64,000 nt of DNA from a virus. The notes beneath the pieces are model-generated. The model was not told the DNA's origin. It saw nothing but the letters and a program-made list of their open reading frames with translations, and searched no databases. Within the stretch, counting starts at the first letter, position 1. Each line of letters begins with the position of its first letter. Shown in pieces: positions 981 through 62,506 of the stretch. The position numbers were made by a program, and so were the translations under genes. The DNA lies in IMG/VR virus record IMGVR_UViG_3300035180_000254. One strand, given 5' to 3'.

Positions 981-1022
981 GAATCTAAAAATTTCTCAAA
1001 AAATTTTTTCGATCTAAAATCC
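981..1022. promoter_or_regulatory. AT-rich divergent intergenic region between the leftward small genes and terS
   Basis: GAATCTAAAAATTTCTCAAAAAATTTTTTCGATCTAAAAT. Contains two ATCTAAA half-sites and an A6T6 palindrome (998-1009). It is the only non-coding AT-rich stretch between the divergent gene sets. Confidence 0.35.
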
Positions 1023-1028
1023 CCACCC

Positions 1029-1634
1029 ATGGCACTCATCCGCTCAGAATCCCCGTCCGACACAGCTCGCCGCCGAGCCAAAGGCACTGCTGCCCTGGTC
1101 GAACGCAAGAAGAAGCTCCTCTCCGGTGAAATCGTCTCCGCGAAAACAGTCGCCGACCTCTCACCCAAGCAGAAGCTGTTCATCAAGTACGTGGCCGAGG
1201 GCGACTCCGGGTCTGCCGCTGCCGAACGTGCTGGCTGCACCCCCAGCTCCTGCCGCTCCATCGCTCACCAGTGGCGCTCCATCCCTGTGATTCAGCAGGA
1301 GATCGCCAAGGCCCAGGCCGCGTACGCCGAGGCCTCCCAGATGACCAAAAAGAAGGTCATGGACATGCTGATTGAGAGCTACGACATGGCCAAGCTCATG
1401 TCTGAGCCCGCCACCATGGTCAGCGCCGCCCGTGAAGTGGGCAAGCTGTGCGGCTTCTACGAGCCGAAAAAGATCGACCTGAATGTGAATGTGAACGGTT
1501 CTGTCGTGTTGGAAAACATGAACAAGATGAGCGACGCCGAACTCCTCAGAATCATCAGCGAAGCGTCCGAGCACGGCGTGGAAGAAGCAGGCCTCCTGCT
1601 GGACCACGACGATGGCGACACAGCCCCCGAGTAA
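1029..1634 (+). CDS. terS: terminase small subunit
   Basis: 201 aa with a basic N-terminus and an HTH-like LSPKQKLFIKYVAEGDSGSAAAERAGC, typical of Terminase_2-type small subunits. Overlaps and directly precedes TerL. Confidence 0.8.
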   Translation: MALIRSESPSDTARRRAKGTAALVERKKKLLSGEIVSAKTVADLSPKQKLFIKYVAEGDSGSAAAERAGCTPSSCRSIAHQWRSIPVIQQEIAKAQAAYAEASQMTKKKVMDMLIESYDMAKLMSEPATMVSAAREVGKLCGFYEPKKIDLNVNVNGSVVLENMNKMSDAELLRIISEASEHGVEEAGLLLDHDDGDTAPE

Positions 1635-3291
1635 AGCAGCCCTTCTCAAAGCCCAAGCCGAGCTGGCCGAGCGCCTGCTCGCCAAGCGCAAGCTCCTGCC
1701 GTTCGTCAAGCGGTTCAATCCGAAGTACCTGGACGGCTGGGTCCACCGTGACATCTGCCGCCGCCTGGAGCGGTTCTCCCAGCAGGTCGCCGAGGGCAAG
1801 TCCCCGCGCCTGATGCTGCTGATGCCACCGCGCCACGGCAAGTCTGAGTTGGTCTCCCGTAACTTCCCTGCCTGGCACATGGGCCAGTACCCTGATCATG
1901 AGTTCATTGCGTGCTCTTACAACCTGTCTCTGGCTATGGATTTCTCCCGCAAGGTCAAGCAGATCATCTCTGATCCCTTGTACGAGAACGTCTTTGATAC
2001 CCGCCTGGACCCAAACAACCAGTCGACTGAGTCATGGGGCGTCCAGGGCCAGCGTGGAGGCTATGTGGCTGCGGGTATCGGCGGACCTATTACGGGTAAA
2101 GGTGCACACTGCCTGGTGATCGACGACCCGATCAAGAACGCCGAGGAGGCTGACTCCGCAGACATCCGAGAGAAGATTTGGGAGTGGTATCTCTCCACCG
2201 CGTACTCGCGCCTGGCCCCTGGCGGCGGCGTGCTGATCATCCAGACCTGGTGGCACGACGACGACCTCTCGGGTCGACTGCAGATCATGATGCGTGAGGG
2301 TCATGACGACCAGTTCGTGGACCAGTTTGAGGTGATCAAGTACCCGGCCATCGCCGAGGCAGACGAGTGGCTGAACGCCACCACCGACCTGATTGAGTAC
2401 GTCCACCACACCGAGGACCTGGCCGCAGCGGTGAACACCCACGGCGAGGCCACAGCCGTCAAGGACAGCCGCCTGCGCGCCCATGTGCGAGCCATGGACC
2501 AGGAGGTGGACACCACCAACATGACCCTCCTGCGCGTGAAGGGCGAGGCCCTGCACCCCGCGCGCTACGACCTGGACAAGCTGAACCGGATCAAAGCCCA
2601 GAACAGGGGAGGGCGCTGGTGGTCGGCCCTGTACCAGCAGAACCCCGTGCCGGCCGATGGCTCCTACTTCACCAAGGACCAGTTCCGCCGCTCGCAGCCC
2701 CCGCGCCTGGACAAGTCGTACGTCTACATCGCCTGGGACTTTGCGATCTCTGAAAAGAAACAGAGTGACTACACGGTCGGCACCGTCGGCCTGCAGGACG
2801 AGGACGACGTGATCCATGTGGTGGACCAAGTGCGCTTTAAGAGCGGAAACGCCTTCTTTATCGTCGAATCCATCCTGAATCTCGCACTCAAGTGGCATAA
2901 TCCCACCCTGACACTGGGCTTCGAGGACGGTCAGATTTGGCGCGCAATCGAAGCTCTGCTTAAGAAACGCATGAGAGAGCGGAAGTTTTACCCCTCCATC
3001 GTGGTCCTGAAGCCCATCACCGACAAGATGGCCCGCGCAAGACCCTTGCAGGGTCGGATGCAGCAGGGGATGGTCAGCTTCAACACGAATGGCGAGTGGT
3101 TTGACTCCCTCAGACAAGAAATGCTGCGGTTTCCAGCCGGGGCGCACGACGACCAAGTGGACTCGCTGGCGTGGGTGACCCAGATGGTCATCGGACGCGA
3201 GGCTCCACGCAAAACTGAGGTGAAACCCATGAAATCCTGGCGCGACAAACTCCGACTTGGCAACACCTCCGGCTCGGCCATGACCGCCTAA
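1612..3291 (+). CDS. terL: terminase large subunit
   Basis: 559 aa. Walker A-like MPPRHGKSE, Walker B LVIDDP, and nuclease-domain motifs IIQTWWHDDDL and GAHDDQVDSLAW. Confidence 0.95.
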   Translation: MATQPPSKAALLKAQAELAERLLAKRKLLPFVKRFNPKYLDGWVHRDICRRLERFSQQVAEGKSPRLMLLMPPRHGKSELVSRNFPAWHMGQYPDHEFIACSYNLSLAMDFSRKVKQIISDPLYENVFDTRLDPNNQSTESWGVQGQRGGYVAAGIGGPITGKGAHCLVIDDPIKNAEEADSADIREKIWEWYLSTAYSRLAPGGGVLIIQTWWHDDDLSGRLQIMMREGHDDQFVDQFEVIKYPAIAEADEWLNATTDLIEYVHHTEDLAAAVNTHGEATAVKDSRLRAHVRAMDQEVDTTNMTLLRVKGEALHPARYDLDKLNRIKAQNRGGRWWSALYQQNPVPADGSYFTKDQFRRSQPPRLDKSYVYIAWDFAISEKKQSDYTVGTVGLQDEDDVIHVVDQVRFKSGNAFFIVESILNLALKWHNPTLTLGFEDGQIWRAIEALLKKRMRERKFYPSIVVLKPITDKMARARPLQGRMQQGMVSFNTNGEWFDSLRQEMLRFPAGAHDDQVDSLAWVTQMVIGREAPRKTEVKPMKSWRDKLRLGNTSGSAMTA

Positions 3292-3305
3292 CCCGCCTCA
3301 CCACC

Positions 3306-7587: not shown

Positions 7588-7629
7588 ACACTCCACAGCC
7601 GTCTCCCTGCGGAGGTGCCATGCTTGAAG

Positions 7630-7665
7630 CCCACGGACTCAAAAGGTCCGTGGGTCTTTTTATTT
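7630..7665 (+). terminator. rho-independent terminator
   Basis: CCCACGGAC-TCAAAAG-GTCCGTGGG (9-bp stem) followed by TCTTTTTATTT. Confidence 0.7.
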
Positions 7666-7672
7666 CCGTTCG

Positions 7673-7687
7673 ATCTAATTTAGATTA
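7673..7687 (+). promoter_or_regulatory. palindromic core copy of the AT-rich element
   Basis: ATCTAATTTAGATTA. The 14-mer CGATCTAATTTAGA at 7671-7684 is identical to 52640-52653. Lies just after the terminator. Confidence 0.4.
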
Positions 7688-7780: not shown

Positions 7781-7802
7781 ATCTAAGCTCTAAAATAGAT
7801 TA
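7781..7802 (+). promoter_or_regulatory. AT-rich 22-bp element (candidate late/capsid promoter)
   Basis: ATCTAAGCTCTAAAATAGATTA, about 130 nt upstream of the capsid ATG in a 267-bp non-coding gap. Confidence 0.5.
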
Positions 7803-7932
7803 CACTTCGTTCTATTCGATTTAGGCAGGTTCTCGATAGCAACCTCCACCCTCGTTGGTCGAGACGACACATCGGCAAGAAGCAGCGGAAACGCAATTTT
7901 TTTGTTTGATCGTTTTGAAAAGGAGAGCCGCT

Positions 7933-15830: not shown

Positions 15831-18716
15831 ATGGCGGCAGTTACTCTCGCCGCAAATGCAGCGGCGGGTGCTAGCCTAGTTGGGCCAGCGCCCAACTACA
15901 CGGTATTTGATACCCACACGTTCCCGGCAGCGCCCACGCAGTGGACCACACCGGCGTACGGTAATGGCGTGCTCGTCAGCTTGGCGGACTCGTCATCCGT
16001 CGCTGCGGTATCCACTGATCTGGGTGTTACATGGACTACACAGTCCATCGCGCTAGGTGCGGCCTCATACACAAATCCTGCCTTCGGTGCAGGGCTATTT
16101 GTTGGCCTTGTCTACTCGTCGGCCTCATACATCACGTCGCCTGACGGGACCACATGGACGACCAGAACACTCCCGGCGTCCCATCTCTGGGACTCAATCA
16201 TCTACGGAGGCGGGCAGTTCTGCGCACTGTCCGGTGACGGGTATGCTGCGGCTTCGTCGGACGGACTGAGCTGGACCATAACGGCCATGCCTAGCACAGG
16301 CACTTCACCGTACTGGAATAGCGTCGTCTACGGTAATGGGATGTTTGTCGCTTCTGCCTACGGCAGTGCTGCACAGGCGTCGTCTACCAATGCATTCCAG
16401 AGCGGCAGCACTGCGAACTTATTAAACCCACTAGCAGCCGGGTCGACCGCCAGTCCCGCTACTGCGTTTGGTAGAGGCGTGTTCGTCAGTATTAAAGACG
16501 ACATGGTGGCTCTCTCGACCAACGGTCTGCCGACAACGTACTCGACAATAGGTGCCATACCGACTTCAGGGCGTCAGTGGCAATTGTGCTTCGATGGGCG
16601 AAACTTCATCGCTGTTGAGCCCAACTCCTCAGACATGATTCTTTCGCAGGACGGTCTGACGTGGGTACTGTACTCGCTGCCGATTTCTGGAGCTGATGGG
16701 GTATTTAGCACCAGTGGTGCCGTGATCATCATCCCGGCTGCGGCTGGGACAACCTCCATCACCATCGGGAACGGGCCGACAGCAAGTTCCGCCGCTGCGT
16801 CCGGGGTGCAACTCGCCGCCAACGCTGTCGCCTCAGCCGCATTCTCCACGACGTTTACGTACAACGTAGTCTCGATGTCGGCAACTGCTCTGGCATCCGC
16901 CAGCATGCCGGTGTACACCCCCAGCTACACATCACCGGCGACGTTCTCAGCGCCAGCCACGTCCTCATTTTGGAGGGGCGTCGCGTACGGCAACGGACAG
17001 TTCGTCGCAGTACCTTATGCGGCTGCGTCGGTCGACGTGTCTAGCGACAACGGCGCGACATGGACAACCGTCACGCTAAGTTATCTCGGGGGCAACACCC
17101 AAGTCGCGTACGGAAACGGCCTGTTCGTTATATTCTCGTACCTCTCGACCAGCTACCACACATCGCCTGACGGGTTCACCTGGACCACCAGGACATTGCC
17201 GGCCTCGTATAAGTGGGTCGACCTCGCGTTCGGCGGAGGGCTGTTCTGTGCATTGTCAAATGATGGGTACGCCGCGACATCGGCGGATGGTATAAGCTGG
17301 GTCTTCTCGACCATGCCGACCATACCCACAGGCACGGGGCTTCAGGGATGGAACGGCGTCTGCTACGGCAACGGGGTATTCCGGGCCTGGACTTATGGTG
17401 GCTCCGGGATGCAGGCCATCTCTCCGAGCGGGTTTCAGTCGGCGATAACGTACAACACAAACGACCCGTTCAAGCCTGCCGATGGGCCGCCGTCTGCGTA
17501 CGGGAATGGGAAGTTTGTCTCCATTAGTGGCCAAGTCGTAGCATCGTCACCCAACGGGCTGCACACGACATCGAGCAGCATAGGTTCTATCGCCCCGGCT
17601 GGAACAAACTGGACTATCTCGTTTGACGGCGGGAACTTCATCGCGGTGGCGGGCACCACGACGACCATACTCACGTCCGCAGACGGCGTAACCTGGGCCG
17701 CGCACACAGCGCCGGTGGCCGGAGCTGTGGCATGTAGTGGGAACGGCGTCACGGTCGTGATGCCATCGGACACGGGAACCACGGGATACACCATGCCCGC
17801 TGGCGGCGGGCTGGTTCTTAGCGCCGTCGCACCAATAACTACGGCAACGACCGTAGTTCTCGCGGTAGCGTTCTCTGCTGCTGCGACTGTGCAGGCAGCG
17901 CTCGCTTTCACCAACACGACACTTTCGGCATCTGCAACAGCGATCGCTTCAGCTACGGCAGCACTCAGCACGTCTGGAGTGGTAGCACTTGGGGCTGCAG
18001 GGGTCTCTTCTGCTTCCGCCTCCGCATCAATTATGGTGCAGCGGGTTCTCCTAGCTACTGCGGTGGCTACTGCGGCCACCGGCTGCTCTATCGCCCTATC
18101 GGTGCCGCTCGCCGCCGACGCACACTCGGTTGCATCTGGAAGCCCAGCACTCAGTCTGAGCAAACTGCTCTCGTCCGTCCAGGTTGCCAGCGCAAGCGCC
18201 TCCGCTGGACTGCTGAACTACCCACTGCTGCAAGCCTCTGCCGTAGCGTCAGCGTCTGCGTCGGCCAGCGCCACGATACGGGCCCTGCTAGCCGCCCAGG
18301 CCCAGGCCCAGGCCCAGGCGACTGGCGCTGTCATGCAGGCCGTTCAGCTAGCCGGGACCGGTGCAGCACAAGCCTCCGCGCCTGCTGCGCTGCTGATCAC
18401 CGTACAGATGGGCGCAGCCCCTGCCGCAACCGCTCTGGCATCTTCGGCTGCGTCCATCCAGAAGCTCATGGCAGCATCTCCGGCTGCGGAGGCCTCTGGC
18501 TCAGGCGCGATCCTCCAGACCTACTCGCTGGCCGCTGGTGCGCAGGCGCAGGCGAGCATGGTGCCGAACTTCTCCACCGCTATGACCCTGAGCGCCCAGG
18601 CATACGCAACAGCGACCATGTCTGCGTCAATCACCAGCGGCTTCGTGTTCAAGTCGAACCGGCTGCGCACGATCATCGTCCCAGCTGAGGCCAGGATGGT
18701 CAAATCTAACATCTAA
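15831..18716 (+). CDS. putative tail spike/receptor-binding protein with two tandem BNR (Asp-box) propeller-like domains and an Ala-rich repeat tail
   Basis: 961 aa. Eight S-x-D-x-G-x-(T/S)-W boxes arranged 4+4 (STDLGVTW, SPDGTTW, SSDGLSW, SQDGLTW / SSDNGATW, SPDGFTW, SADGISW, SADGVTW). Duplicated YGNG.FV motifs. C-terminal repeats of about 20 aa (L.A.A.ASASA). Ends IIVPAEAR. Confidence 0.7.
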   Translation: MAAVTLAANAAAGASLVGPAPNYTVFDTHTFPAAPTQWTTPAYGNGVLVSLADSSSVAAVSTDLGVTWTTQSIALGAASYTNPAFGAGLFVGLVYSSASYITSPDGTTWTTRTLPASHLWDSIIYGGGQFCALSGDGYAAASSDGLSWTITAMPSTGTSPYWNSVVYGNGMFVASAYGSAAQASSTNAFQSGSTANLLNPLAAGSTASPATAFGRGVFVSIKDDMVALSTNGLPTTYSTIGAIPTSGRQWQLCFDGRNFIAVEPNSSDMILSQDGLTWVLYSLPISGADGVFSTSGAVIIIPAAAGTTSITIGNGPTASSAAASGVQLAANAVASAAFSTTFTYNVVSMSATALASASMPVYTPSYTSPATFSAPATSSFWRGVAYGNGQFVAVPYAAASVDVSSDNGATWTTVTLSYLGGNTQVAYGNGLFVIFSYLSTSYHTSPDGFTWTTRTLPASYKWVDLAFGGGLFCALSNDGYAATSADGISWVFSTMPTIPTGTGLQGWNGVCYGNGVFRAWTYGGSGMQAISPSGFQSAITYNTNDPFKPADGPPSAYGNGKFVSISGQVVASSPNGLHTTSSSIGSIAPAGTNWTISFDGGNFIAVAGTTTTILTSADGVTWAAHTAPVAGAVACSGNGVTVVMPSDTGTTGYTMPAGGGLVLSAVAPITTATTVVLAVAFSAAATVQAALAFTNTTLSASATAIASATAALSTSGVVALGAAGVSSASASASIMVQRVLLATAVATAATGCSIALSVPLAADAHSVASGSPALSLSKLLSSVQVASASASAGLLNYPLLQASAVASASASASATIRALLAAQAQAQAQATGAVMQAVQLAGTGAAQASAPAALLITVQMGAAPAATALASSAASIQKLMAASPAAEASGSGAILQTYSLAAGAQAQASMVPNFSTAMTLSAQAYATATMSASITSGFVFKSNRLRTIIVPAEARMVKSNI

Positions 18717-18725
18717 TATAGAATA
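18704..18725 (+). promoter_or_regulatory. AT-rich 22-bp element (candidate promoter)
   Basis: ATCTAACATCTAATATAGAATA overlaps the stop of the spike gene. The next ATG (18733) is 7 nt downstream with no SD. Confidence 0.45.
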
Positions 18726-18732
18726 CCCCACC

Positions 18733-19878
18733 ATGGACATCAAAGCGTTCCGAGGTCTCAACAACGTGACCGACCCTTTGCGGCTCGGTCTGGACTGGCT
18801 CGTCCAAGCAGACAACGTGAACGTGACCAGCACCGGCTCCCTCGTCAGCCGTGAGGGGTACAGCCAGTCTCTGGTGGGCAACTACACCGCCATCTACAGC
18901 ACCCAGGACTACCAGCGCTGCTACGTCGTCAAGGCAGGCGTACTGCAGACCTTCGAGGGCGCTCAACTCATAACTCTAATTTCGAACGCACAGATGTTCT
19001 GGGCCGAAGTGAACGGCCAGGTCTTCTTCAACAACGGCACCGACAGCGGTGTGATCCTGCCGGACAACACCGTGCTGCCGTGGGCCTGGGCCACGCCGAC
19101 GCCGCCCGCTGTGTCGGCCTCCACCGGCAACCTGCCTGCTGGCGTCTACCAGGTGCGCTGCTCCTTCGTGCTGCCCGACGGGCGCGAGACCGGCACCGGT
19201 GACTCCGCTGAGATTTACCTCGACGGCTCCCAGGCGCTGGTGATCTCCAACATCCCGCAGGCTGGCGGTGTGACGAACGTCTACATCGCACCGGCCAACA
19301 GCGACGTGTACCAGCTGGCCTACGTCACCGTGGCCAAGAGCCTGACCTTCAACGGCTCCATCGACACCCTCGGGCGCGACCTGCTCAACGCCTTCTTGGA
19401 CCCGCTGCCTGCTGGGTCCAGCGTGATCCAGCACTGGAAGGGCTGCATCTACGCCGCGCAGTACATGCCCAATGAGAAGCAGACCGTGGTCTGGTTCACT
19501 GAGCCTCTGGGTTTCCACCTGTTCAACTTGAACAGCAACTTCTTCATCGTGCCTGGCCAAGTCCTGATGCTGGCCCCGCACGACGACGCACTGATCATCG
19601 GCACCGATGCACGTGTGTTTGCCTACACCGGTGACAAGCTCCAAGAGCTGGCCGACTACGGCGTCATCCCTGGCCAGCACTGGGCCGAGGACGATGACCG
19701 CATCCTGTTCTGGACACTGCGGGGCCTGTGCGCCGCGCTGCCCTTCAAGAATCTTACCGAGCGCCAAGTTTCAGTGGCGCCAGGTCTTAGTGCTGGCGGG
19801 GCCATTGTGCGCAGTGGCGGGCAAAAACGCTATGTCGTTGCACTCCATGCTGGAGGGTATCCATTCAATGCTAAATAG
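18733..19878 (+). CDS. hypothetical tail protein
   Basis: 381 aa. MDIKAFRGLNNVTDPLRL N-terminus as in podophage tail/nozzle-associated proteins (uncertain). Confidence 0.6.
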   Translation: MDIKAFRGLNNVTDPLRLGLDWLVQADNVNVTSTGSLVSREGYSQSLVGNYTAIYSTQDYQRCYVVKAGVLQTFEGAQLITLISNAQMFWAEVNGQVFFNNGTDSGVILPDNTVLPWAWATPTPPAVSASTGNLPAGVYQVRCSFVLPDGRETGTGDSAEIYLDGSQALVISNIPQAGGVTNVYIAPANSDVYQLAYVTVAKSLTFNGSIDTLGRDLLNAFLDPLPAGSSVIQHWKGCIYAAQYMPNEKQTVVWFTEPLGFHLFNLNSNFFIVPGQVLMLAPHDDALIIGTDARVFAYTGDKLQELADYGVIPGQHWAEDDDRILFWTLRGLCAALPFKNLTERQVSVAPGLSAGGAIVRSGGQKRYVVALHAGGYPFNAK

Positions 19879-25851: not shown

Positions 25852-25938
25852 ACGACCTACGGGTGGGCGCTAAGCGCTAAAATACCGCCATCCCACTGGA
25901 GCTGCAGGCTATGAAGGTGCTTCCCTCAAGGAGCACCC

Positions 25939-34740: not shown

Positions 34741-34847
34741 CTCTATCTCTATATAGGAATAATTTCTTCTACTTAATACTAATTTAATTTTCTGTAATTG
34801 ATAATTTAATTTTATAAGTATAAGTATATAAGTATATAGAGGGAGAG
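34741..34847. repeat. extreme AT-rich island with flanking inverted repeat and internal direct repeats
   Basis: CTCTATCTCTATATA (34741-34755) pairs with TATATAGAGGGAGAG (34833-34847) at 13 of 15 positions. TAATTTAATTTT occurs twice (34780, 34802). TAAGTATA occurs three times (34815-34836). Confidence 0.6.
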
Positions 34848-34848
34848 C

Positions 34849-35187: not shown

Positions 35188-35209
35188 ATCTAAACTCTAA
35201 AGCAGATCG
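35188..35209 (+). promoter_or_regulatory. AT-rich 22-bp element (candidate lysis-cassette promoter)
   Basis: ATCTAAACTCTAAAGCAGATCG, the best consensus copy. The next ATG (35219) is 9 nt downstream and has no SD. Confidence 0.5.
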
Positions 35210-39054: not shown

Positions 39055-39076
39055 TAGTCTTATTTAGATTTTAGAT
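39055..39076 (-). promoter_or_regulatory. AT-rich 22-bp element
   Basis: rc = ATCTAAAATCTAAATAAGACTA. Lies between the HNH stop and the next gene's start. Confidence 0.45.
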
Positions 39077-39675: not shown

Positions 39676-39699
39676 CTCGTAATAAAAGAATCGGATCTA

Positions 39700-40575
39700 T
39701 TATAAATCTAATTTAGACCTTAGACCTTTAAACGAAGGGTGGCGAGGTAGGTCCTTGCGCCCGATGGGGAAGTGGTTGTACGAGACCAGCGCACCGATTG
39801 GAGGGTTTATCCACATCTGTATCCGGTCGGCTTCAGTAAATCCGGTCCCAATATGAAACTCGACCCCACTGTTTATGTCGCGTACGTGAAGAGCGCCCAT
39901 GCGTCCCTTACCGACTTTGTTTTCTTTGTGGCTGCTACGTTTGGTGCGGCCCAGCTCGTTGGTGGTAGCTTCGTTGCCGTTGTGCATCTCTTCGACGACG
40001 CCGAGAACGACGCATTCGTCGGTGAGCATGCGCTTCACCTTCAGAAGGAAGCCCTCCTTGGCGGTGCTGCGGCCGAACTTGTAGGGCGAGTCAGGGTGGC
40101 GCAGGATCACGCCCTCATGGCCAGCCTCTAACGCATTGGCTTCGAACTTATTCAGAGATTCGATGTCGTGGACGGCCACTTGCTCCAATGCCATCAGACG
40201 AACACCCGCGCCACTGACCGTGCGCAGCATGCGCTTGTAGCGGTCGTAGAAGGGGCGGTCTTCGACCTTGTCGAACACGTAGAAGTTCCAGTCCACGTCC
40301 TTCTTATTCTCGGTCATGACACCACTAACCGTGTCACGGTAGCAAGTGGGGCTGTTGGTCGGTCCGACGATCAGCTCGCCGTCCAGACCCTCAAACGAGG
40401 CCTTGCTGAGCACCGCGCTGATGTGCATGTTCGGGATAGGCTTGAGCGAACGGCTCAGGAGCTGGCCTTTGCGCACGATGGCGCGGATACCGTCGAGCTT
40501 GATTGACGCGAAATACCCAGCACTCCAGTCCAGCATGTCAAGGTCAGCGTTAGTTGCGAGCATCGGACGAAACAT
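39700..40575 (-). CDS. ATP-dependent DNA ligase
   Basis: 291 aa. Adenylation motif I SIKLDGIR. Size and motif order match phage ATP ligases. Confidence 0.9.
   Translation of the reverse strand: MFRPMLATNADLDMLDWSAGYFASIKLDGIRAIVRKGQLLSRSLKPIPNMHISAVLSKASFEGLDGELIVGPTNSPTCYRDTVSGVMTENKKDVDWNFYVFDKVEDRPFYDRYKRMLRTVSGAGVRLMALEQVAVHDIESLNKFEANALEAGHEGVILRHPDSPYKFGRSTAKEGFLLKVKRMLTDECVVLGVVEEMHNGNEATTNELGRTKRSSHKENKVGKGRMGALHVRDINSGVEFHIGTGFTEADRIQMWINPPIGALVSYNHFPIGRKDLPRHPSFKGLRSKLDL
39704..39725 (-). promoter_or_regulatory. AT-rich 22-bp element overlapping the ligase 3' end
   Basis: rc = GTCTAAGGTCTAAATTAGATTT. Encodes the ligase C-terminus LRSKLDL* and lies upstream of the HNH gene. Confidence 0.45.
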
Positions 40576-40641: not shown

Positions 40642-40875
40642 TCATTTCTTTTTTCCTGCGTTGTAAGCACCCATGACGCGCAGCGCCTTGGTGCTCAAGG
40701 GGTCTCTGAATTGGGCCTGGGCCACAACGGCGTTGAGTGCCTGCGACACCTGGCCTTTGATCTCGATGGGCATGATGTTCATACGCCAAACCTTCTTGGT
40801 CAGGTCATAGACCTCGTAGAGGCCCCAGCCCTGTCGTGCGGCCTCGGCCTTTTCGCTCGGTGTTAGATCGGACAT
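40642..40875 (-). CDS. hypothetical protein (77 aa)
   Basis: ORF track entry. The ATG is embedded in an AT-rich element copy. Confidence 0.55.
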   Translation of the reverse strand: MSDLTPSEKAEAARQGWGLYEVYDLTKKVWRMNIMPIEIKGQVSQALNAVVAQAQFRDPLSTKALRVMGAYNAGKKK

Positions 40876-40886
40876 AGAGTTTAGAT
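40865..40886 (-). promoter_or_regulatory. AT-rich 22-bp element overlapping a start codon
   Basis: rc = ATCTAAACTCTATGTCCGATCT. The ATG of 40642..40875 lies inside the element. Confidence 0.4.
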
Positions 40887-40913: not shown

Positions 40914-41039
40914 TTACGGAGTCTGTCGAATCGTGATCTGGAGGTGGGGCATGGTGATGTGGATCGTCTTGCCTTCTTCCGTGATGACCACACCAGGGCG
41001 GTCTGCCAGCAGCCTGGGTGCGTATTCCACACCAACCAT
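40914..41039 (-). CDS. possible small ORF (41 aa), in frame with the upstream gene across a TGA
   Basis: MVGVEYAPRLLADRPGVVITEEGKTIHITMPHLQITIRQTP. Same frame as 41058..41285, 6 codons after its TGA. No SD. Confidence 0.25.
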   Translation of the reverse strand: MVGVEYAPRLLADRPGVVITEEGKTIHITMPHLQITIRQTP

Positions 41040-41057
41040 CGGCACGTCCAGGTTCTT

Positions 41058-41285
41058 TCACTGGTAGGCCCACCGGGCGCGTGAGCCACCTTCTTGGGCC
41101 GACGGAACTCGGGTGACGAGCGCCCTGCGCCACATTAGCCCAAGGTAGTCAGAGACGCGGTTTGCGGTAGCCGCATGCTCCCTCACATCAGGCAGATCGA
41201 ACAGCTCATTGCAGTCCATCGCCCGGCCACTCTCACGGAGAGCTATCTCCAGGGCTTGAAGAAGCCCCTTCTCAGAATGTCTCAT
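41058..41285 (-). CDS. hypothetical winged-helix-like protein (75 aa)
   Basis: ORF track entry. LLQALEIALRESGRAMDCNELFDL...VSDYLGLMWRRALV has a wHTH-like pattern. A palindrome lies immediately upstream. Confidence 0.5.
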   Translation of the reverse strand: MRHSEKGLLQALEIALRESGRAMDCNELFDLPDVREHAATANRVSDYLGLMWRRALVTRVPSAQEGGSRARWAYQ

Positions 41286-43099: not shown

Positions 43100-43123
43100 C
43101 GATCTGCTTTAGAGCGCAGATCG
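43100..43123 (-). promoter_or_regulatory. AT-rich element copy folded into an 8-bp hairpin
   Basis: CGATCTGC-TTTAGAGC-GCAGATCG. rc of 43100-43114 (CTCTAAAGCAGATCG) is identical to 35195-35209. Confidence 0.45.
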
Positions 43124-44902: not shown

Positions 44903-44956
44903 ACTTTTCTCCATAGGTGAATTATTACACAATCTTTGACAGATCTGAAAAAGATT

Positions 44957-45820: not shown

Positions 45821-46378
45821 CTATTTGCCGGTAAGGTGTTTCCACGTCTTACCGTTCTTTATGTTTTGGACCGACGACTGAGTCAGCCCATAGGCGTTAG
45901 CAATGACGCGAGTCAGCCTTATGTCGTCGAGAATCGCCATCACTTGCTGTTCGTTGAGCTTGGCCGAAAGATTGGCCTCGCCCTTAGCACCGTATGCACG
46001 GCCTTTTTCTCGGAGGTCGCGCATGTTGTCTTGATGCGTGCCGAGTCGTAGATGCTCAGGATTCACGCACCCTGGGTTGTCGCACTTGTGCAGAACGTGC
46101 ATGCCTCTCGGAATTGGCCCATTGTGCATAACCCATGACCCACGGTGAGCATTTTTCTCGCCGTGGGCGGTCCATATCCCATACCCGCAAGTTACTGTTG
46201 CCCCGATCCATAACCAGCAGTTGGTTATTGAGTCGACCTGGTAACGTTCGCGGAACGGTACTCCGCGCAAGTTCGCTGATTTAAGCGGGTCGCCATATTT
46301 CATAAACGCGCGGTAGTGTTTTTTACAGTACCCGCGACCGACCGACGGCTCGCCGCAAACAGAGCAGGGTGTACGCAT
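45821..46378 (-). CDS. HNH homing endonuclease
   Basis: 185 aa. HKCDNPGCVNPEHLRLGTHQDNMRD HNH core plus a C-terminal HTH-like tail. AAAGGAG SD. Lower GC. Directly downstream of the DNA polymerase. Confidence 0.85.
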   Translation of the reverse strand: MRTPCSVCGEPSVGRGYCKKHYRAFMKYGDPLKSANLRGVPFRERYQVDSITNCWLWIGATVTCGYGIWTAHGEKNAHRGSWVMHNGPIPRGMHVLHKCDNPGCVNPEHLRLGTHQDNMRDLREKGRAYGAKGEANLSAKLNEQQVMAILDDIRLTRVIANAYGLTQSSVQNIKNGKTWKHLTGK

Positions 46379-46396
46379 GTGAACTCCTTTAATGTT

Positions 46397-46436
46397 CCTC
46401 TATTATATAGTAACGATTATTTACTATAGTTAGAGG
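46397..46436 (-). other. AT-rich imperfect hairpin enclosing the polymerase stop codon
   Basis: CCTCTA..TATAGTAA-CGATTAT-TTACTATA..TAGAGG. Confidence 0.3.
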
Positions 46437-49377: not shown

Positions 49378-49577
49378 CAGTTGTCCTCCGGCATGCGCGG
49401 GCAGGGTGCCCAGTGAGTCCAGTAGCGGGACTTGCCGTCCCACTGACTGTAGACAGCCACACCGCCAATACCCAGGAGCTGCAGCTTCACGCCGCGCGGT
49501 GTGTCAAGGCCGATCTTTTGCCAGTAGTAGTCTGTTGACACAGCGACCGTCTGGTCCTTGTTGAGGGTGTGGCTCAT
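49377..49577 (-). CDS. hypothetical protein (66 aa)
   Basis: ORF track entry. Overlapping stop/start junctions on both sides. Confidence 0.5.
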   Translation of the reverse strand: MSHTLNKDQTVAVSTDYYWQKIGLDTPRGVKLQLLGIGGVAVYSQWDGKSRYWTHWAPCPRMPEDN

Positions 49578-49723: not shown

Positions 49724-49733
49724 ACGATCTCCG

Positions 49734-51272
49734 TTAGAGTAAAGAGAATAGGTCGAGTAGATTGCTCATGCGGGCATTCTTCTCATTCAAGATGTCCCAC
49801 ACCAGCTCTTCGCGCGTGTCTTTGGCCGTGACCACGATGTTCTCGGTCTTCTGCGTCTGACCCATGCGGGCCTGACGCTTGGAGCCTTGCTTGAACACCT
49901 CCAGGTCATAGGTCGGGCCAGACCAGATGGTGGCCGTGCCCTTGGTCAGCGTGAGGCCGTGCGCTGCGCTCTTGGGGTGAGCGAACAGGGTCTGGTAGGC
50001 ACCGGCCTGGTAGCACTTCACGATGGCCTCGCGCTCAGAGTCCTTCACGCTGCCGTCGATCAGAGCGAACGTGACGCCGCGCTTTTCAGCCTCGGCAATC
50101 AGGAGGTCGCGTTGGTGCTTCCAATAGAAGAAGCACAGGCTGTGCTTGCGCGCTTCGATCAGGTCCAAGATCATCTCGTAGCGGCCAGTGTCGATCAGGT
50201 GGTACTTGTTCTCGGACTCGTACACAGCGCCCGAGGCAACCTGGAGCAGCTTCTGGGCCAGGACACCGGCGTGCTGGGCAGTGATAGCTGCCTTGGGCAT
50301 TAGCTTTTTGCTGCGCACGCGGGCCGTAGCGCGCTCTTCCATGGTGCCGTAAATCTGCAACATGCAGGTCTCCAGCATCTCGTCGTATGCCTTGCGATGC
50401 GCGCGGCCCAGTTCGTAAGGGATGCTGTACTGATGGGTCTCAGGGATGTCCACACAGTCCTCGAACTTGTGCCGGATGGTGATGTCGCTGAGCAGGCCGA
50501 ACACGGCTTCCTCGGCGCCACCCTTGTCCGACCAGTTGATGGCGTTGGCGTTCATACCGACCTGCTTAGGCGTACACACTGTGTTGCGGAACGCATAGAA
50601 GCTCGGGCCGAGACGCTTGCCGCCGTCCAGGAGCAGTACCTGATGCCAGACATCCGTGATGCTGTTGCTGTTGGGCGTGCCCGTCATGCAGCAGCGGTAG
50701 TGGAAGAACTTGCTGATCTTGGCGGCAGCACGTGAGCGCTGGGAAGCGTGGTGCTTGTAGGCGGTGGACTCGTCCACGACCAATTCGGAGAAGCGCGCGA
50801 AGAAGCCCTTAGGCTGCTTGGCGAGCCACTTCACCGCGTCGATGTTGGTGACGTAGACATCAGCGTCCTGCTTGAACACTTCTTCGTGTTTGCCTGCCGT
50901 GCTTACTGCCACCGTGAGCTGGGGTGCGAACTTCTTGATGTCGTTGAGCCATACCGACCTCAGCAGTGATTTCGGCGCGAGTACTAGCATAGAGCGCCCA
51001 GGCGTCGTAGAAGTCGTCGTGGTTCGTTTTGTACCGCGACGACTCGTCCCGGACGATGCGGCCCGTAGTCGTGTCGCAAACGCCATGATCCGCACATACG
51101 TCTTGCCCGTCCCAGGGTCGCTGCAGTCGAAGACTATGTCGGTCTTCTCATTGTGCTTGAGCGACTTGACCTGATGCGCGAAGGGCTTGATTACGGCGGG
51201 CGTTGATTTCGTTTTTTTGACCTGCTTCGTAGTACCGCGCAAGGCTGAGTGCGGAGAGGCTAATGCGACCAC
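49734..51272 (-). CDS. SNF2-family helicase
   Basis: 512 aa. DPGTGKTY (motif I), VVDESTAYKH (motif II), C-terminal helicase-domain motifs. GTG start follows AAGGA. Has an odd S/T/R-rich insert after motif I. Confidence 0.85.
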   Translation of the reverse strand: MVALASPHSALRGTTKQVKKTKSTPAVIKPFAHQVKSLKHNEKTDIVFDCSDPGTGKTYVRIMAFATRLRAASSGTSRRGTKRTTTTSTTPGRSMLVLAPKSLLRSVWLNDIKKFAPQLTVAVSTAGKHEEVFKQDADVYVTNIDAVKWLAKQPKGFFARFSELVVDESTAYKHHASQRSRAAAKISKFFHYRCCMTGTPNSNSITDVWHQVLLLDGGKRLGPSFYAFRNTVCTPKQVGMNANAINWSDKGGAEEAVFGLLSDITIRHKFEDCVDIPETHQYSIPYELGRAHRKAYDEMLETCMLQIYGTMEERATARVRSKKLMPKAAITAQHAGVLAQKLLQVASGAVYESENKYHLIDTGRYEMILDLIEARKHSLCFFYWKHQRDLLIAEAEKRGVTFALIDGSVKDSEREAIVKCYQAGAYQTLFAHPKSAAHGLTLTKGTATIWSGPTYDLEVFKQGSKRQARMGQTQKTENIVVTAKDTREELVWDILNEKNARMSNLLDLFSLL

Positions 51273-51363: not shown

Positions 51364-52071
51364 CTAGACTCCCACAGTGCAGTGCTCAGTGTTCTTGTAC
51401 GGGCACCACCTGCAACTAAATTTGTTAGCATTGGTCGGAAAGTCATCACACTCGGTGATCGACATTCCCTGGTTGTGAAAGTTTTGTTTGAAGCGCAATG
51501 CTTGGCTACGTGTGAACTGACGTTCAACGATCTCGCCATGGTCGATGTACCAGTCAGCTACGGTCACGTGTTCGAGTTGGGGGTAGCGCAGGAACGTCGA
51601 GACTGCGTAGAGTTGAAGCTGCTGCGCGTGGACGATTTCATTCCCGTAGATACGTCCAGTTTTGAAGTCGATCAGACTCGCGTGAGTCTTCGACCAGTGG
51701 ACGAGTGCATCCACCTTCATACGCACCCAGCCAGACTTCCAGGGGGCGACATCCCAACCCTTGTCGAAGGCCCACTCCTCTTCCATTTCGACCATGCCAT
51801 CGGCATACATCGAGCGCAACAAATCCATGTGCATACTAAAGTGCTTCTCAGCCTCTGGGCAGAGTGCATCATGCTCATTGCGGACGTAAGCCTCAGCGTT
51901 CTCATGCACTCGGGTGCCACGGTCATTGCCGTGCTCGGTCTTACCAGGAGGCAGAGGGCGTTCAGGCTCTGGTATCTTGTTAATGTGCTTCAGCATGAAC
52001 ATGCGTTTGCACTTCGAAAAATCCTGGAGTTTCGAGAACGACCAGCTGCTGGTTTTGACTTGAGTGGTCAT
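51364..52071 (-). CDS. RecB/Cas4-like PD-(D/E)XK exonuclease with a 4-Cys cluster
   Basis: 235 aa. LIDFKTG (D-x-K), QLQLYA (Q-x3-Y), N-terminal Cys plus C-terminal CRWCPYKNTEHC. Confidence 0.8.
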   Translation of the reverse strand: MTTQVKTSSWSFSKLQDFSKCKRMFMLKHINKIPEPERPLPPGKTEHGNDRGTRVHENAEAYVRNEHDALCPEAEKHFSMHMDLLRSMYADGMVEMEEEWAFDKGWDVAPWKSGWVRMKVDALVHWSKTHASLIDFKTGRIYGNEIVHAQQLQLYAVSTFLRYPQLEHVTVADWYIDHGEIVERQFTRSQALRFKQNFHNQGMSITECDDFPTNANKFSCRWCPYKNTEHCTVGV

Positions 52072-52631
52072 GTTGGTGTGGTAGGGTGGTAAATACGTTT
52101 GGCTGCGAGGTACGCTTCATGCGCTACTTGCGGGCTGTTAAACCGGCCAAGAAAGTGGTGTTTGCGCTGAGCGACGATTTGAGCCACCCACTGGCAAGTA
52201 CGTGCTTCAAAACTAACGCCTTGGTAACCAGTGGTATTGCGACTAGGAATTCCACGGTTGTGCTGATTCATAGAAGGCGTCGCATCGCGCAAGTTCTTAA
52301 TCCTGTTGTCCGCCTTCACACGGTTCTTGTGATCAACCTCATATGTCGGCCAGACGCCATGGACGTAGAACCAAGCAAGGCGGTGTGCCAGATAGCGTTT
52401 GCGGTCAATGCCAATACGGAGATAGCCATTTGCCATGACATCACCGACTTCATGACCACGAACTGCGGTCGCCCTCCGGCGCTTAAAGATGCCCGTCAGT
52501 GGGTCGTAATCTAAAACAGACTTAAGACGTTCGTGCGTTAGAATCTGACTGCTCATGGCGCTTGTTCCCCTCTGACAAGTGGTGTGTGAAGTGGTGCTCG
52601 GGAGGTTCCCGCCTTCCGAGCATTGCGCCAT
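52068..52631 (-). CDS. HNH homing endonuclease with AP2-type DNA-binding domain
   Basis: YLAHRLAWFYVHGVWPT.EVDHKNRVKADNRIKNLR...N (HNH_3-like), then GYQGVSF.....W.A......HFLGRF....A..AY (AP2-like). Start at 52631 (8 nt after an element copy) or at 52556. Confidence 0.85.
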   Translation of the reverse strand: MAQCSEGGNLPSTTSHTTCQRGTSAMSSQILTHERLKSVLDYDPLTGIFKRRRATAVRGHEVGDVMANGYLRIGIDRKRYLAHRLAWFYVHGVWPTYEVDHKNRVKADNRIKNLRDATPSMNQHNRGIPSRNTTGYQGVSFEARTCQWVAQIVAQRKHHFLGRFNSPQVAHEAYLAAKRIYHPTTPT

Positions 52632-52639
52632 TCTACACT

Positions 52640-52661
52640 CGATCTAATTTAGAGTTTCGAT
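52640..52661 (-). promoter_or_regulatory. AT-rich 22-bp element
   Basis: rc = ATCGAAACTCTAAATTAGATCG. Overlaps the stop of 52649..53080 (..RSKL*) and lies upstream of the HNH-AP2 gene. Confidence 0.45.
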
Positions 52662-57729: not shown

Positions 57730-57751
57730 GGATCGAAAAAGATTATAGATT
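57730..57751 (-). promoter_or_regulatory. degenerate AT-rich element copy
   Basis: rc = AATCTATAATCTTTTTCGATCC. Lies in the gap between the phosphoesterase operon and the next genes. Confidence 0.3.
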
Positions 57752-61159: not shown

Positions 61160-61160
61160 T

Positions 61161-61682
61161 TCACGGACGTGCATCCACGAAGGCCACCAGCTTGTCGATA
61201 TCAGCCTGGGTATCGGCGATCACCTTCAGCAGCTTGGCGGGCTTGGCCTTGATCTTATTCAGAGTTTCGATCTGGGCTTCCAGTTGGCCGATCTTTCGAA
61301 AGATGTCGCCGTCGCTGAGCGTGGCAGCGTCAGCACCGGCGATGAAGGTTTTGGTTTCGATGACGGGGGTCTTTTCGGACATGGTGGTTTCTTCCTTGAG
61401 GTTGTCGTAGATTTCTTTGGTGGTTTGGACGCTGGTCGGTTTACCGACGTGGTAATACTTCATGGTGCCGACATCAAAGGCGACCAGTCGGAGGTAGCTC
61501 AGCTTGCTGATCACGCCGTCGGCGGGACGCTGCAGTTTCTCAGCCATCTCTTTGAGAGAGCTGCCCATAAAGTACAGCTCTTTGAGTGCGTGCAGCTCTA
61601 CGCTTGTCCAGATCTTTCCGTGCCGGGCACGGATGATGTTGTCGTTATGTCCGAAGGACGTGTCAAATGTTTCTTGGGTCAT
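61161..61682 (-). CDS. hypothetical protein with SANT/Myb-like HTH N-terminus
   Basis: 173 aa. WTSVELHALKELYFMGSSLKEMAEKLQRPADGVISK. C-terminal coiled coil. Confidence 0.5.
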   Translation of the reverse strand: MTQETFDTSFGHNDNIIRARHGKIWTSVELHALKELYFMGSSLKEMAEKLQRPADGVISKLSYLRLVAFDVGTMKYYHVGKPTSVQTTKEIYDNLKEETTMSEKTPVIETKTFIAGADAATLSDGDIFRKIGQLEAQIETLNKIKAKPAKLLKVIADTQADIDKLVAFVDARP

Positions 61683-62140
61683 GCTGTACCACTCAAGAGT
61701 TGTTGAAGTTGCTTGAACCGCTCACTTTGCTTCTCAGCAGTGGTGAACTGTTCTTCGATCTCGACTGCGCAGCTGTCCAAGTCATCGGCCAGGTTGCGCA
61801 GGCGTGCGGCCAGGTCGCCAATCTTATCGAGCGGTGACTTGACCGGTGTGGGTTTGGGTGCTGTAGTTGGTGTGACCATGGCTGTAGGTTTCTCCGGTTT
61901 AACTGGTGCGCGCGAGTAGGCGCTGGGTTTGCTGCCACGTTCCAACACGAGGCCCGCATCGGTCAGGTGCCGCAGGCATCCTTGCAGCGTGCGGAAGTCG
62001 GGGATCATGTTGGTGCGTGCCAGCTCGGCCTGAATCTGCTGCGGTGTCCACATCTCTTGGATAGGCACCGCTGCGTAGACCTTCTTGGCTGTTGCTGTCA
62101 TGCCGTTAATGAGCGACTTGAAGCGGGCCTGGGGCATCAT
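61679..62140 (-). CDS. winged-helix-like protein with Pro-rich linker
   Basis: 153 aa. TLQGCLRHLTDAGLVLERG pattern. Confidence 0.5.
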   Translation of the reverse strand: MMPQARFKSLINGMTATAKKVYAAVPIQEMWTPQQIQAELARTNMIPDFRTLQGCLRHLTDAGLVLERGSKPSAYSRAPVKPEKPTAMVTPTTAPKPTPVKSPLDKIGDLAARLRNLADDLDSCAVEIEEQFTTAEKQSERFKQLQQLLSGTA

Positions 62141-62319
62141 GGCTTAGGCTCCTTCACGACGTGTGCGATGGGCATGCACAGCGGCGTGAGCTTTTCGATT
62201 GCCCATTCGAGCGCTGCGATTTCTGATTTGTCCCACGTGTTGTCGTAGGGCCTGGCACGCAGGAATTCGACGCGTCGGCGCATCGTGCGTAGGTGCTTGG
62301 CTGGACCTGCTCCGCTCAT
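62137..62319 (-). CDS. hypothetical protein (60 aa)
   Basis: ORF track entry. The ATG lies 12 nt after an element copy, with no SD. Confidence 0.45.
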   Translation of the reverse strand: MSGAGPAKHLRTMRRRVEFLRARPYDNTWDKSEIAALEWAIEKLTPLCMPIAHVVKEPKP

Positions 62320-62326
62320 ATGAGTT

Positions 62327-62506
62327 TCATCCGATCTGTTTTAGAGTTAAGAATTGTACACGCCGCGAAGCCGTGCGAACGAGAACTGAGCACTGGCGTA
62401 CGAACCGGTCGTGGCTTGGGTAAGCGCAGTCATGGCTGTCTACAACGGCGTAATAACGTGGAGCACAACCCGTGCCCTCACGCACAGGGATCATGACGAG
62501 CTTCAT
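62327..62506 (-). CDS. possible small Cys-containing protein (59 aa)
   Basis: ATG at 62506 lies 5 nt after GGGAGG. MKLVMIPVREGTGCAPRYYAVVDSHDCAYPSHDRFVRQCS... One codon below the track cutoff. Confidence 0.3.
   Translation of the reverse strand: MKLVMIPVREGTGCAPRYYAVVDSHDCAYPSHDRFVRQCSVLVRTASRRVQFLTLKQIG
62332..62353 (-). promoter_or_regulatory. AT-rich 22-bp element
   Basis: rc = TTCTTAACTCTAAAACAGATCG. Confidence 0.4.

Follow-up and report, generated by a model that had tools for sequence, protein, structure and literature searches.

A recurrent 22-bp element was analyzed in a stretch of viral DNA (IMG/VR virus record IMGVR_UViG_3300035180_000254), referred to here as the window (64,000 bp, the whole stretch at its full length). 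The element is a genuine, strongly conserved DNA signal at the heads of middle and late gene blocks. Judging from sequence, we hold it to be somewhat probable that it combines a promoter for host RNA polymerase (RNAP) with a three-hexamer operator for a phage regulator; the start sites, the polymerase used, and the role of the regulator are all part of that reading. One of the closest described systems is the middle promoter of phage T4, which relies on sigma appropriation by MotA and AsiA: a phage element replaces the −35 hexamer beside a host-type −10 hexamer, upstream of many post-early genes. A phage-encoded DNA-binding reader would likewise be expected here. The MotA box is a single nonpalindromic 9-bp element at a fixed distance from the −10 hexamer, whereas the present element has three hexamers that reach into the −10, with a register of 16, 21, 25, or 41, and no MotA or AsiA family was found in the scanned proteins.

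Four further phage systems and one bacterial operator bear on the comparison. As is proposed here, the late and middle promoters of Mu and P2 (C, Mor, and Ogr) depend on host RNAP, have a −10 hexamer but no usable −35, include a dyad element, and occur in several copies through which a temporal class is coordinated; the C, Mor, and Ogr sites are centered at about −43 to −55 in a fixed geometry, whereas the array described here spans about −27 to −13, overlapping the −10 hexamer. Fur-box operators (F-F-x-R), which are occupied by two dimers of a protein with a winged helix and a dimerization domain, resemble the two direct and one inverted hexamers found here over the core promoter. As in Fur systems, a winged helix at the N terminus and a beta domain at the C terminus are predicted for the candidate reader, whose model is matched by Foldseek to Fur, Zur, Mur, and PerR; unlike the Fur box, the hexamer is (A/C)TCTAA in a 6-1-6-1-6 arrangement, there is no metal-site evidence, and the likeness is one of fold level only (E value, 0.1; ∼15% identity). 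T7- and N4-type promoters share the conserved, oriented element of ∼20 to 23 bp before genes, but here no phage RNAP gene was found, there is no hairpin, the distance to the ATG is variable, and canonical sigma70 −10 hexamers are present. The promoter-early stem-loop (PeSL) cassettes of T4-type phages are repeated promoter-bearing motifs that flank variable or mobile genes. The present element similarly flanks HNH endonuclease genes and could mediate cassette shuffling, but it has no stem-loop, is much shorter, and in most copies precedes conserved core genes. Finally, the leaderless cI mRNA of phage lambda, made from PRM, has a −10 hexamer ∼7 nucleotides (nt) before the AUG and no Shine-Dalgarno (SD) sequence; here such a design, as predicted from sequence, recurs at several genes and is conserved clade-wide, especially at the small-terminase gene (TerS).

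On these comparisons, the element is most likely a fresh example of a familiar kind of phage control element rather than a new transcription system. If the reading is true, it would provide a map of middle and late transcription units for a large uncultivated clade (316 relatives by major capsid protein, or MCP, in IMG/VR), a clade-wide case of leaderless or near-leaderless phage genes (the small terminase in particular), and a testable pair consisting of a three-hexamer operator and a winged-helix protein. Homing-endonuclease genes are also seen settling behind the repeated promoter element. The value would lie in annotation, synthetic-biology parts (a compact regulated promoter), and phage regulation, with no new transcription principle required.

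Genome and relatives

The window comes from a podovirus-type phage genome of ∼67.3 kb and 60% GC. Plus-strand genes from 1029 to ∼37785 include those for the small terminase (Terminase_2), large terminase, P22-like portal, MCP, and a 2321-aa virion protein. Minus-strand genes run from ∼63831 down to 37963 and serve replication and nucleotide metabolism; their products include a primase-helicase, a MoxR-type ATPase, a VWA protein, a PD-(D/E)XK nuclease, an SNF2 helicase, PolA, an exonuclease, a ligase, and a dUTPase. The nearest isolates are the Pseudomonas phages KPP25 and phiR18, with an MCP identity of only 64%, and a near-identity search of the window's first 25 kb against isolate phages gave no nucleotide-level match. 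The MCPs of the IMG/VR relatives are 76 to 96% identical. A JGI contig (locus L155) represents the same phage (684 nt, 100% identical) and fills the 3.3 kb between the window ends with five small early genes, the gene for a 311-aa protein, and the primase N terminus; the complete ∼67.3-kb genome was taken as the window plus L155. Acidovorax phage AP1 was dropped as a comparison phage, being temperate and having only head genes in common. Rfam and tRNA scans of the window were empty.

Enrichment, orientation, and conservation of the element

All nine copies listed in the initial annotation were found at the same coordinates and on the same strands, as were the exact strings it had reported as shared by distant copies: CTCTAAAGCAGATCG at 35195 and, in reverse complement, at 43100; AATCTAAACTCTAAA at 4116 and 35187; and CGATCTAATTTAGA at 7671 and, in reverse complement, at 52640. 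Over 92 co-oriented instances in relatives, the consensus is ATCTAA-n-CTCTAA-n-TTAGAT(C/T), which amounts to two direct hexamers followed by an inverted one (F-n-F-n-R) with a spacing of 6-1-6-1-6. The last two hexamers form the palindrome TCTAA-n-TTAGA with a 1-nt center, perfect at 7671, 39704, and 52640. In the logo of these 92 instances, there is no conservation upstream (−19 to 0) or downstream of the motif.

The motif is enriched more than 100-fold, even relative to each intergenic segment's own composition. Against whole-window dinucleotide shuffles, TCTAARNTCTAAA with at most one mismatch gave 7 matches where 0.13 were expected. The stricter null was a first-order Markov model of each padded intergenic segment (5.5 kb in total, 51% GC). 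Under this null, TCTAANNNAGAT occurred 8 times in padded intergenic DNA versus 0.025 expected, which answers the concern, raised when the element was first described, that it might be no more frequent than its AT-rich surroundings would allow; the 20-nt consensus with at most three mismatches occurred 9 times versus 0.06 expected. Eight of the nine matches to TCTAANNNAGAT in the window fall within padded intergenic DNA, which makes up 8.6% of the window.

The proposed orientation with the genes also holds. A tandem pattern applied without a position weight matrix (PWM) gave 12 matches in the window, 11 of them on the local gene strand, and in relatives 166 matches lay on the gene strand versus 32 on the other (P = 5e-23). 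A PWM scan of relatives (1.89 Mb of loci) found 106 distinct matches, 92 on the gene strand, with 1 match in the reversed-sequence control. Orthologous copies are present in the closest relatives for the window copies at 52640, 49725, 44941, 43100, 40865, 57730, 62332, and 61250. Conservation in related genomes, a test named at the outset, is thus found within the IMG/VR clade distantly related to KPP25, but it does not extend to KPP25, the nearest isolate, in which there is no motif copy, or to some lineages of relatives; in some lineages, TCGAA hexamers stand in place of TCTAA. Database-wide, an exact-pattern scan returned 120 matches, of which 95 lie in AT-rich contigs (<40% GC) and are probably due to chance, and 17 are high-GC matches with the motif-plus-ATG layouts of the clade, six of them on clade contigs already in the set. 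The early operon (window 1-960 plus L155 10001-12980) has no motif copy. Relatives retrieved through the C terminus of the 2321-aa protein came to 2 loci, too few for comparing the 35188 site, and a literature search on KPP25 promoters or the motif strings found nothing relevant.

Copies in the window

The copies and related sites are listed by coordinate, with the strand and the local context.

1010..1020, plus strand: degenerate copy CGATCTAAAAT, before the small-terminase gene
7671..7685, no strand assigned: solo palindrome CGATCTAATTTAGAT, directly behind a strong terminator (7629-7655) and followed by TAGGGT
7781..7802, plus strand: strong motif copy ATCTAAGCTCTAAAATAGATTA, upstream of the major capsid gene; score, 36.2
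18704..18725, plus strand: motif copy ATCTAACATCTAATATAGAATA, containing TAGAAT at 18719-18724
35188..35209, plus strand: motif copy ATCTAAACTCTAAAGCAGATCG, 9 nt upstream of the SD-less ATG at 35219
39055..39076, minus strand: motif copy ATCTAAAATCTAAATAAGACTA, 4 nt upstream of the SD-less ATG at 39050; 3' flank of an inserted HNH cassette
39704..39725, minus strand: motif copy GTCTAAGGTCTAAATTAGATTT, followed by a perfect TATAAT at 39699-39704
40865..40886, minus strand: motif copy ATCTAAACTCTATGTCCGATCT, with the start codon of a conserved 77-aa gene at motif position 12
43100..43121, minus strand: motif copy ATCTGCGCTCTAAAGCAGATCG, 27 nt before the exonuclease ATG, which has the SD GGGAG; orthologue in L106
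44941..44962, minus strand: motif copy GTCTGAAATCTTTTTCAGATCT, overlapping the −35 (TTCAGA) of a promoter with a TG-extended −10 (AATAAT, 44921-44926)
46396..46417, minus strand: motif-like ATCGTTACTATATAATAGAGGA, with a perfect TATAAT at 46402-46407, ahead of the HNH endonuclease gene at 45821-46378
49725..49746, minus strand: weak copy CTCTTTACTCTAACGGAGATCG, overlapping the helicase stop codon, 1 nt before an ATG
52640..52661, minus strand: motif copy ATCGAAACTCTAAATTAGATCG, with the HNH-AP2 homing-endonuclease gene (52068-52631) directly behind
57730..57751, minus strand: weak copy AATCTATAATCTTTTTCGATCC, below the PWM threshold; orthologous matches in L106, L122, L140, L141, and L143
61250..61271, minus strand: high-scoring match ATCGAAACTCTGAATAAGATCA, inside a 173-aa open reading frame (ORF), encoding IETLNKI
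62332..62353, minus strand: motif copy TTCTTAACTCTAAAACAGATCG, 12 nt upstream of the SD-less ATG at 62319; orthologues in L140 and L143

Four of these sites were added by the PWM scan, namely, 44941, 61250, 49725, and 46396, all on the minus strand, and a further copy lies upstream of the primase gene, just outside the window. Several are kept at the same place in relatives: the 40865 site in at least 8 lineages, the 49725 position in L106, L122, and L084, and the −10 hexamer of the 44941 promoter as TACGAT in L106 and TACAAT in L084. In the closest relatives (L003 and L006), the homologue of the palindrome at 7671 is the promoter CGATCTAATTTAGAT-TAGAAT. A weak terminator-like hairpin lies ∼60 nt before copy 35188. 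Copy 39704 leads through an SD-bearing leader into the HNH endonuclease gene at 39064-39675 and forms the 5' flank of that cassette.

Weaker sites vary in standing. The weak copy at 57730 in the initial annotation was missed by the PWM scan and yet is conserved at the orthologous site in relatives; that at 25867 found no support. The string at 4116 lies within the portal coding sequence, where relatives conserve it at the protein level; both it and the PWM match at 40143, inside the ligase gene, are probably look-alikes. The match at 61250 is possibly a coding look-alike, and copy 49725 may instead be a TAA-plus-SD junction. At 62327-62506 on the minus strand, a Cys-rich ORF of 59 aa, preceded by a good SD and called by the JGI pipeline, has a 3' end that reads through copy 62332 in the one open frame of the motif.

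Host-type −10 hexamers at the element

A TAnnnT hexamer starting at motif positions 15 to 28 is found in 44 of the 92 instances in relatives, compared with 7 to 9 of 92 in upstream control windows. In the window, such a hexamer lies in or next to the copies at 1010, 7671, 7781, 18704, 39704, 46396, and 52640. At copy 7781, the −10-like TACACT (7801-7806) straddles the 3' end of the motif. This TACACT is the TAnAnT hexamer of the MCP promoters: in the MCP upstream regions of ∼80 relatives and KPP25, a terminator is followed by TAnAnT (TACACT, TAGAAT, TAGAGT, or TATAGT) and then by a conserved leader. KPP25 promoters are of this terminator-plus-−10 type. Primase promoters consist of the motif, 2 nt, and then TACACT or TAGACT, and both homing-endonuclease promoters with the motif (39704 and 46396) have the perfect TATAAT.

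No conserved −35 appears in the logo of the 92 instances, and consensus-type promoters are unenriched in the window. Sequences resembling a −35 occur only as single cases: TGGTCA, 16 bp upstream of the TAGAAT of copy 18704; TTCTCA (993-998), 16 bp upstream of the TAAAAT (1015-1020) of copy 1010; and TTGACA, 19 or 20 bp upstream of the −10 hexamer in L044 and L046, in which lineages the palindrome lies inside the spacer.

The register between motif and −10 hexamer is variable. The hexamer starts at motif position 16 in the TerS type and at 18704, at 21 to 22 at the MCP gene and at 39704, at 25 at the primase gene, and at 41 at 44941. Solo palindromes of the same family stand before or after the −10 hexamer in other lineages, those of the latter type at +1 to +20; many relatives have MCP promoters without a palindrome, and in one lineage (L015, L025, and L034) the order is motif, terminator, MCP promoter. 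As at an operator, the multihexamer inverted-repeat site overlaps or abuts the −10 hexamer. Because the −10 hexamer lies downstream of the motif at the MCP gene, the primase gene, and 44941, the motif would be outside those transcripts and hence act at the DNA level. The variable offset, together with palindromes that follow the −10 hexamer or are absent and with an ATG inside the motif, points to a multihexamer binding site rather than a fixed core-promoter element.

Two regions next to these promoters have features of their own. The long 5' leader of the MCP gene (7803-7926) is conserved in ∼80 relatives (..GGCAGGTyyCGAyAGCAcCTCC..TCGtTGGTCGAGACGACA..) and contains apparent complementary segments; it is possibly a structured regulatory leader, without an Rfam match. 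The divergent region between the early operon and TerS (960-1030) contains long runs of A and of T (AAAAAATTTTTT) that are kept throughout the clade, as well as inverted half-sites (TTAGATCG and TTTAGATTC) that face the early genes, and it probably holds the early promoter.

Predicted short-leader and leaderless starts

The motif-adjacent starts at 1029, 18733, 35219, 39050, 40875, 52631, and 62319 had been described as lacking an SD, and indeed none of the 7 has an SD-like 4-mer, versus 43 of 66 other genes (Fisher P = 0.0012). The accompanying statement that most operon-internal genes have AAGGAG-type sites was somewhat overstated: a majority do carry an SD-like 4-mer, but only about two-thirds carry any at all. 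The position of the ATG relative to the motif ranges from 12 (inside the motif) to more than 120 nt beyond it. SD-less ATGs cluster at motif positions 27 to 32, and where the ATG is at least 27 nt from the motif, a normal SD is present.

The TerS gene offers an example found across lineages. In many lineages, TAAAAT, TAGAAT, or TATAAT is followed by 6 to 10 nt (mostly 7 to 9) of GC-rich sequence and then an ATG without an SD. The window TerS start follows this layout (TAAAAT, CCCCACCC, and the ATG at 1029 without an SD, spanning 1015-1031) and is almost identical to that of copy 18704 (TAGAAT, ACCCCACC, and the ATG at 18733, also without an SD, spanning 18719-18735). Among the 17 high-GC matches of the database-wide scan, 10 have TAGAA(T/C), 7 to 9 nt, and an ATG. 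A −10 hexamer 6 to 10 nt before an SD-less ATG implies leaderless or very-short-leader mRNAs, and the motif-adjacent genes would be made from such transcripts. The original proposal of a gene-oriented promoter giving short-leader mRNAs thus gains comparative support from the −10-to-ATG spacing and the SD-less starts.

A candidate regulator

40914..41285, minus strand: gene for a candidate motif-binding winged-helix protein; the called product is 75 aa (41285-41058) versus ∼124 aa in relatives

Clustering of the ORFs in the pol loci yielded no perfect correlate of the motif; the best was a winged-helix family in which a segment resembling a recognition helix, RVSDYLG, is invariant. In pol loci with sufficient coverage, motif and winged-helix gene co-occur in a ratio of 13/3 versus 2/10 (Fisher P = 0.0016, without correction for phylogeny), and KPP25 has neither the motif nor the winged-helix protein. 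An AlphaFold model (pLDDT, 78) has an H-b-H-H-wing fold followed by a beta C-terminal domain. Foldseek matched it to MarR, ArsR, Fur/Zur, Mur, and PerR regulators with probabilities of 0.99 to 1.0 and root mean square deviations of 2.3 to 3 Å over ∼75 residues. Comparison of the family profile with PDB sequences gave noise only. We take this protein to be the best candidate for the reader of the motif. A site for a dedicated regulator, the second possibility in the initial annotation, fits better than an RNAP promoter in view of the three-hexamer array and the variable −10 register, although the reader has the standing of a candidate only.

In the phage studied here, the winged-helix gene has an in-frame TGA (41058-41060) in place of a Trp codon that is nearly invariant in relatives (YQ*K versus YQWK). 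Beyond the TGA, the frame stays open for 47 more codons, which match the C-terminal domain of relatives. The truncated 75-aa allele is present on 10 contigs from several samples and is therefore no sequencing error; read-through or a split function is possible. Autoregulation of the gene was considered and set aside as weak: the palindromes upstream of it in the window and in L106 differ in spacing, and there are none in other lineages.

Proposed mechanism and alternative explanations

The favored reading can be stated as follows. In an uncultivated podophage clade distantly related to KPP25, the motif would act at the DNA level as both promoter and operator. Its 3' third (TTAGAT/TTAGAAT, positions 15 to 21) would be a host sigma70-type −10 hexamer or directly abut one, with no conserved −35, and transcription would start ∼7 nt past the hexamer. 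With an ATG 4 to 12 nt after the motif, such a start would give a leaderless mRNA or a very short leader, so that no SD is needed, while genes farther from the motif would use an ordinary SD. The F-n-F-n-R array covers the spacer and the −10 hexamer and would most simply be the site of a dimeric DNA-binding regulator, acting by either activation or repression, that switches the middle (replication) and late (structural and lysis) units, the early operon being without the motif.

Several observations weigh against this reading. About half of the instances have no TAnnnT at positions 15 to 28, including the copies at 35188, 43100, 62332, 39055, and 40865; such copies typically read (C/A)AGATC, with a C at the expected T−7, and the case for plain sigma70 recognition of them is weak. 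In the 40865 class, the ATG (position 12) lies upstream of any start predicted from a −10 hexamer at position 16 or beyond. The variable register argues against a classical activator of fixed geometry. As for the reader, the Foldseek E values are weak (0.04 to 0.2), Pfam finds nothing for the winged-helix protein, and PHROG matches are marginal; three motif-rich loci have no winged-helix gene within 10 kb, two motif-poor loci have one, and in the present phage the TGA cuts the gene in at least 3 independent assemblies while the motif is intact.

Because the register varies, palindromes may stand upstream or downstream of the −10 hexamer, and many MCP promoters function without one, the motif might instead be an operator only, bound by a nucleoid protein or by a repressor of phage or host origin, with the nearby promoters independent and the lack of SDs otherwise caused. 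The direct-direct-inverted array, reminiscent of Fur-box-type operators, and the motif copies upstream of the pre-MCP terminator in L015, L025, and L034 would also suit this account. We nevertheless regard it as unlikely: it leaves unexplained the strict co-orientation with genes, which a purely palindromic operator would not need, the depletion of SDs, the recurrent design of TAGAAT, 7 to 9 nt, and ATG in which the right half-site is itself the −10 hexamer, and the homing-endonuclease genes directly behind copies. The first possibility in the initial annotation, a likeness to promoters of single-subunit RNAPs, leads to a stand-alone promoter for an unrecognized phage RNAP or sigma-like factor (among the early ORFans or the 311-aa, 961-aa, or 2321-aa proteins), with the start fixed to the motif. 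In its favor, the element is self-contained at 20 to 22 bp, strictly oriented, and without conserved flanks or a −35; AGATCG-type copies without a canonical −10 prefer an ATG at 31 to 32 (35188, 52640, L084, L106, and L015); most early proteins have no detectable family; and TCTAAATA may be likened to the T4 late −10 TATAAATA. Pfam and PHROGs scans, however, which covered the tested large virion proteins and most replication and early ORFs (several mid-size structural-module ORFs were left out of the scan), yielded neither an RNAP nor a sigma factor or known transcription factor, and in the closest relative (L140) the early region likewise showed no RNAP or sigma domain. The earlier remark that no RNAP gene is recognizable in the window agrees with these scans of window proteins, and its suggestion that such a gene, or a sigma-like one, might lie in the rest of the genome found nothing among precomputed Pfam calls on L155, which covers the missing 3.3 kb. 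The large proteins contain no T7-like or DxDGD polymerase motifs by regular expression, and the 2321-aa protein had no match among PDB sequences. The block is conserved over 21 to 22 bp as in T7-like promoters, but ATG positions (12 to 35) and −10 offsets vary, canonical sigma70 −10 hexamers and an occasional TTGACA stand beside many copies, and the motif precedes both middle and late genes. Hairpins were predicted to be more stable than those of shuffled sequences at only 2 of 12 copies (43100, −8.1 kcal/mol, and 44941, −4.9), the other 10 being unstructured, and covariation was limited to G5-C16 in 4 instances; a hairpin, whether as an N4-like promoter or as an RNA stem-loop, was ruled out on these grounds. 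Neither a T7-like nor an N4-like promoter is supported, and a factor of the hidden kind strikes us as quite unlikely. The same holds for its corollary, in which transcription by an unrecognizable phage machine would begin a few bases ahead of the AUG, giving a leaderless expression program across the genome in a high-GC proteobacterial phage clade. MotA and AsiA families were likewise not reported by Pfam or PHROGs in the early and middle proteins scanned, where remote homologues are possible.

Two other accounts place the function of the motif elsewhere than in transcription initiation. At the RNA level, it could be an SD-independent translation enhancer, a termination-reinitiation signal, or a site at cistron junctions that is recognized by a translational repressor or endoribonuclease. 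The TAA at motif positions 11 to 13 is the stop codon of the upstream gene in copies 18704, 39055, 52640, and 49725; SD-less ATGs lie within 1 to 12 nt; the sequence TAAGGAGATCG of some weak copies combines a stop codon with an SD; and the ATG of the 77-aa gene lies inside the motif. Such a role is very unlikely, given ATG distances that run from inside the motif to more than 120 nt, the −10 hexamers downstream of the motif at the MCP gene, the primase gene, and 44941, a palindrome whose 1-nt center cannot form an RNA hairpin, the folding of only 2 of 12 copies, and the lack of an Rfam match. We consider it highly improbable that the copies are primarily recombination or mobility sites (boundaries of shuffled cassettes or targets of homing endonucleases) with a secondary link to expression. 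The HNH gene at 39064-39675 does lie between two direct copies, in place of a different gene of relatives, an HNH-AP2 gene follows copy 52640 directly, with junctions that differ in two lineages, and a third HNH gene has a motif-like promoter. Most copies, however, are at orthologous sites before core genes (TerS, MCP, primase, exonuclease, and nuclease) with no mobile gene nearby, 22 bp is short for homologous exchange, and the landing of homing-endonuclease genes behind promoters is the simpler reading.

Homing endonucleases and mobile inserts

The replication module is unusually rich in mobile endonucleases, with three HNH genes and an insert in PolA. The three free-standing HNH homing-endonuclease genes, one of which encodes an AP2 domain, are all on the minus strand (39064-39675, 45821-46378, and 52068-52631). 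L106 and L084 lack the first and third and are nonhomologous over the segment that holds the second; L122 has the third. The first, between copies 39704 and 39055, replaces the 3' end of the ligase gene and a small gene of relatives. In L106 and L084, the counterpart of copy 52640 directly precedes the PD-(D/E)XK nuclease gene, and the junction of the HNH-AP2 gene in L122 differs from that in the window. This distribution fits endonuclease genes that exploit, and perhaps spread, the promoter element. The PolA gene (46417-49443, minus strand) carries an in-frame insert of ∼864 bp (47020-47884) that is absent in L106, L122, and L084; PolA residues 540-828 match an endonuclease PHROG, and the insert is likely an intein or an in-frame homing-endonuclease insertion.

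Other features of the genome

The 2321-aa virion protein (27754-34719) contains two zincin-type HExxH motifs (approximately aa 1305-1309 and 1557-1561). It has a weak zincin-like (anthrax-lethal-factor-like) Pfam match, and only its C-terminal third matches virion-structural PHROGs. Between its gene and the next plus-strand genes, a small hydrophobic ORF (34812-35093, minus strand) runs opposite to all of its neighbors; a similar arrangement is seen in L150, and the ORF may encode a membrane protein or be a moron.

Two extremely AT-rich elements of ∼110 bp stand out in the 60% GC genome, one at 34741-34848 in the window and the other at ∼12870-12985 in L155, upstream of the primase gene. Both start with TCTCTATATAGG and end with TATATAGAGG, and similar blocks occur in L150 (after the giant gene) and in KPP25 (at ∼26.5 kb). 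Possible roles are as origins, strong promoters for early genes, or sites related to packaging.

The ORF list starts the C-terminal primase ORF at 63831, after an in-frame stop (window 63832-64000 compared with L155 13039-15417); at odds with this list, the JGI contig of the same phage and relatives have a single 792-aa primase gene that extends past the window end. The gene order closes at ∼67.3 kb, yet contigs carrying this phage (JGI 3300036715 Ga0373634_0000372; loci L152 and L155) measure 87.5 kb and as much as 104 kb, which suggests concatemeric assembly or terminal redundancy.

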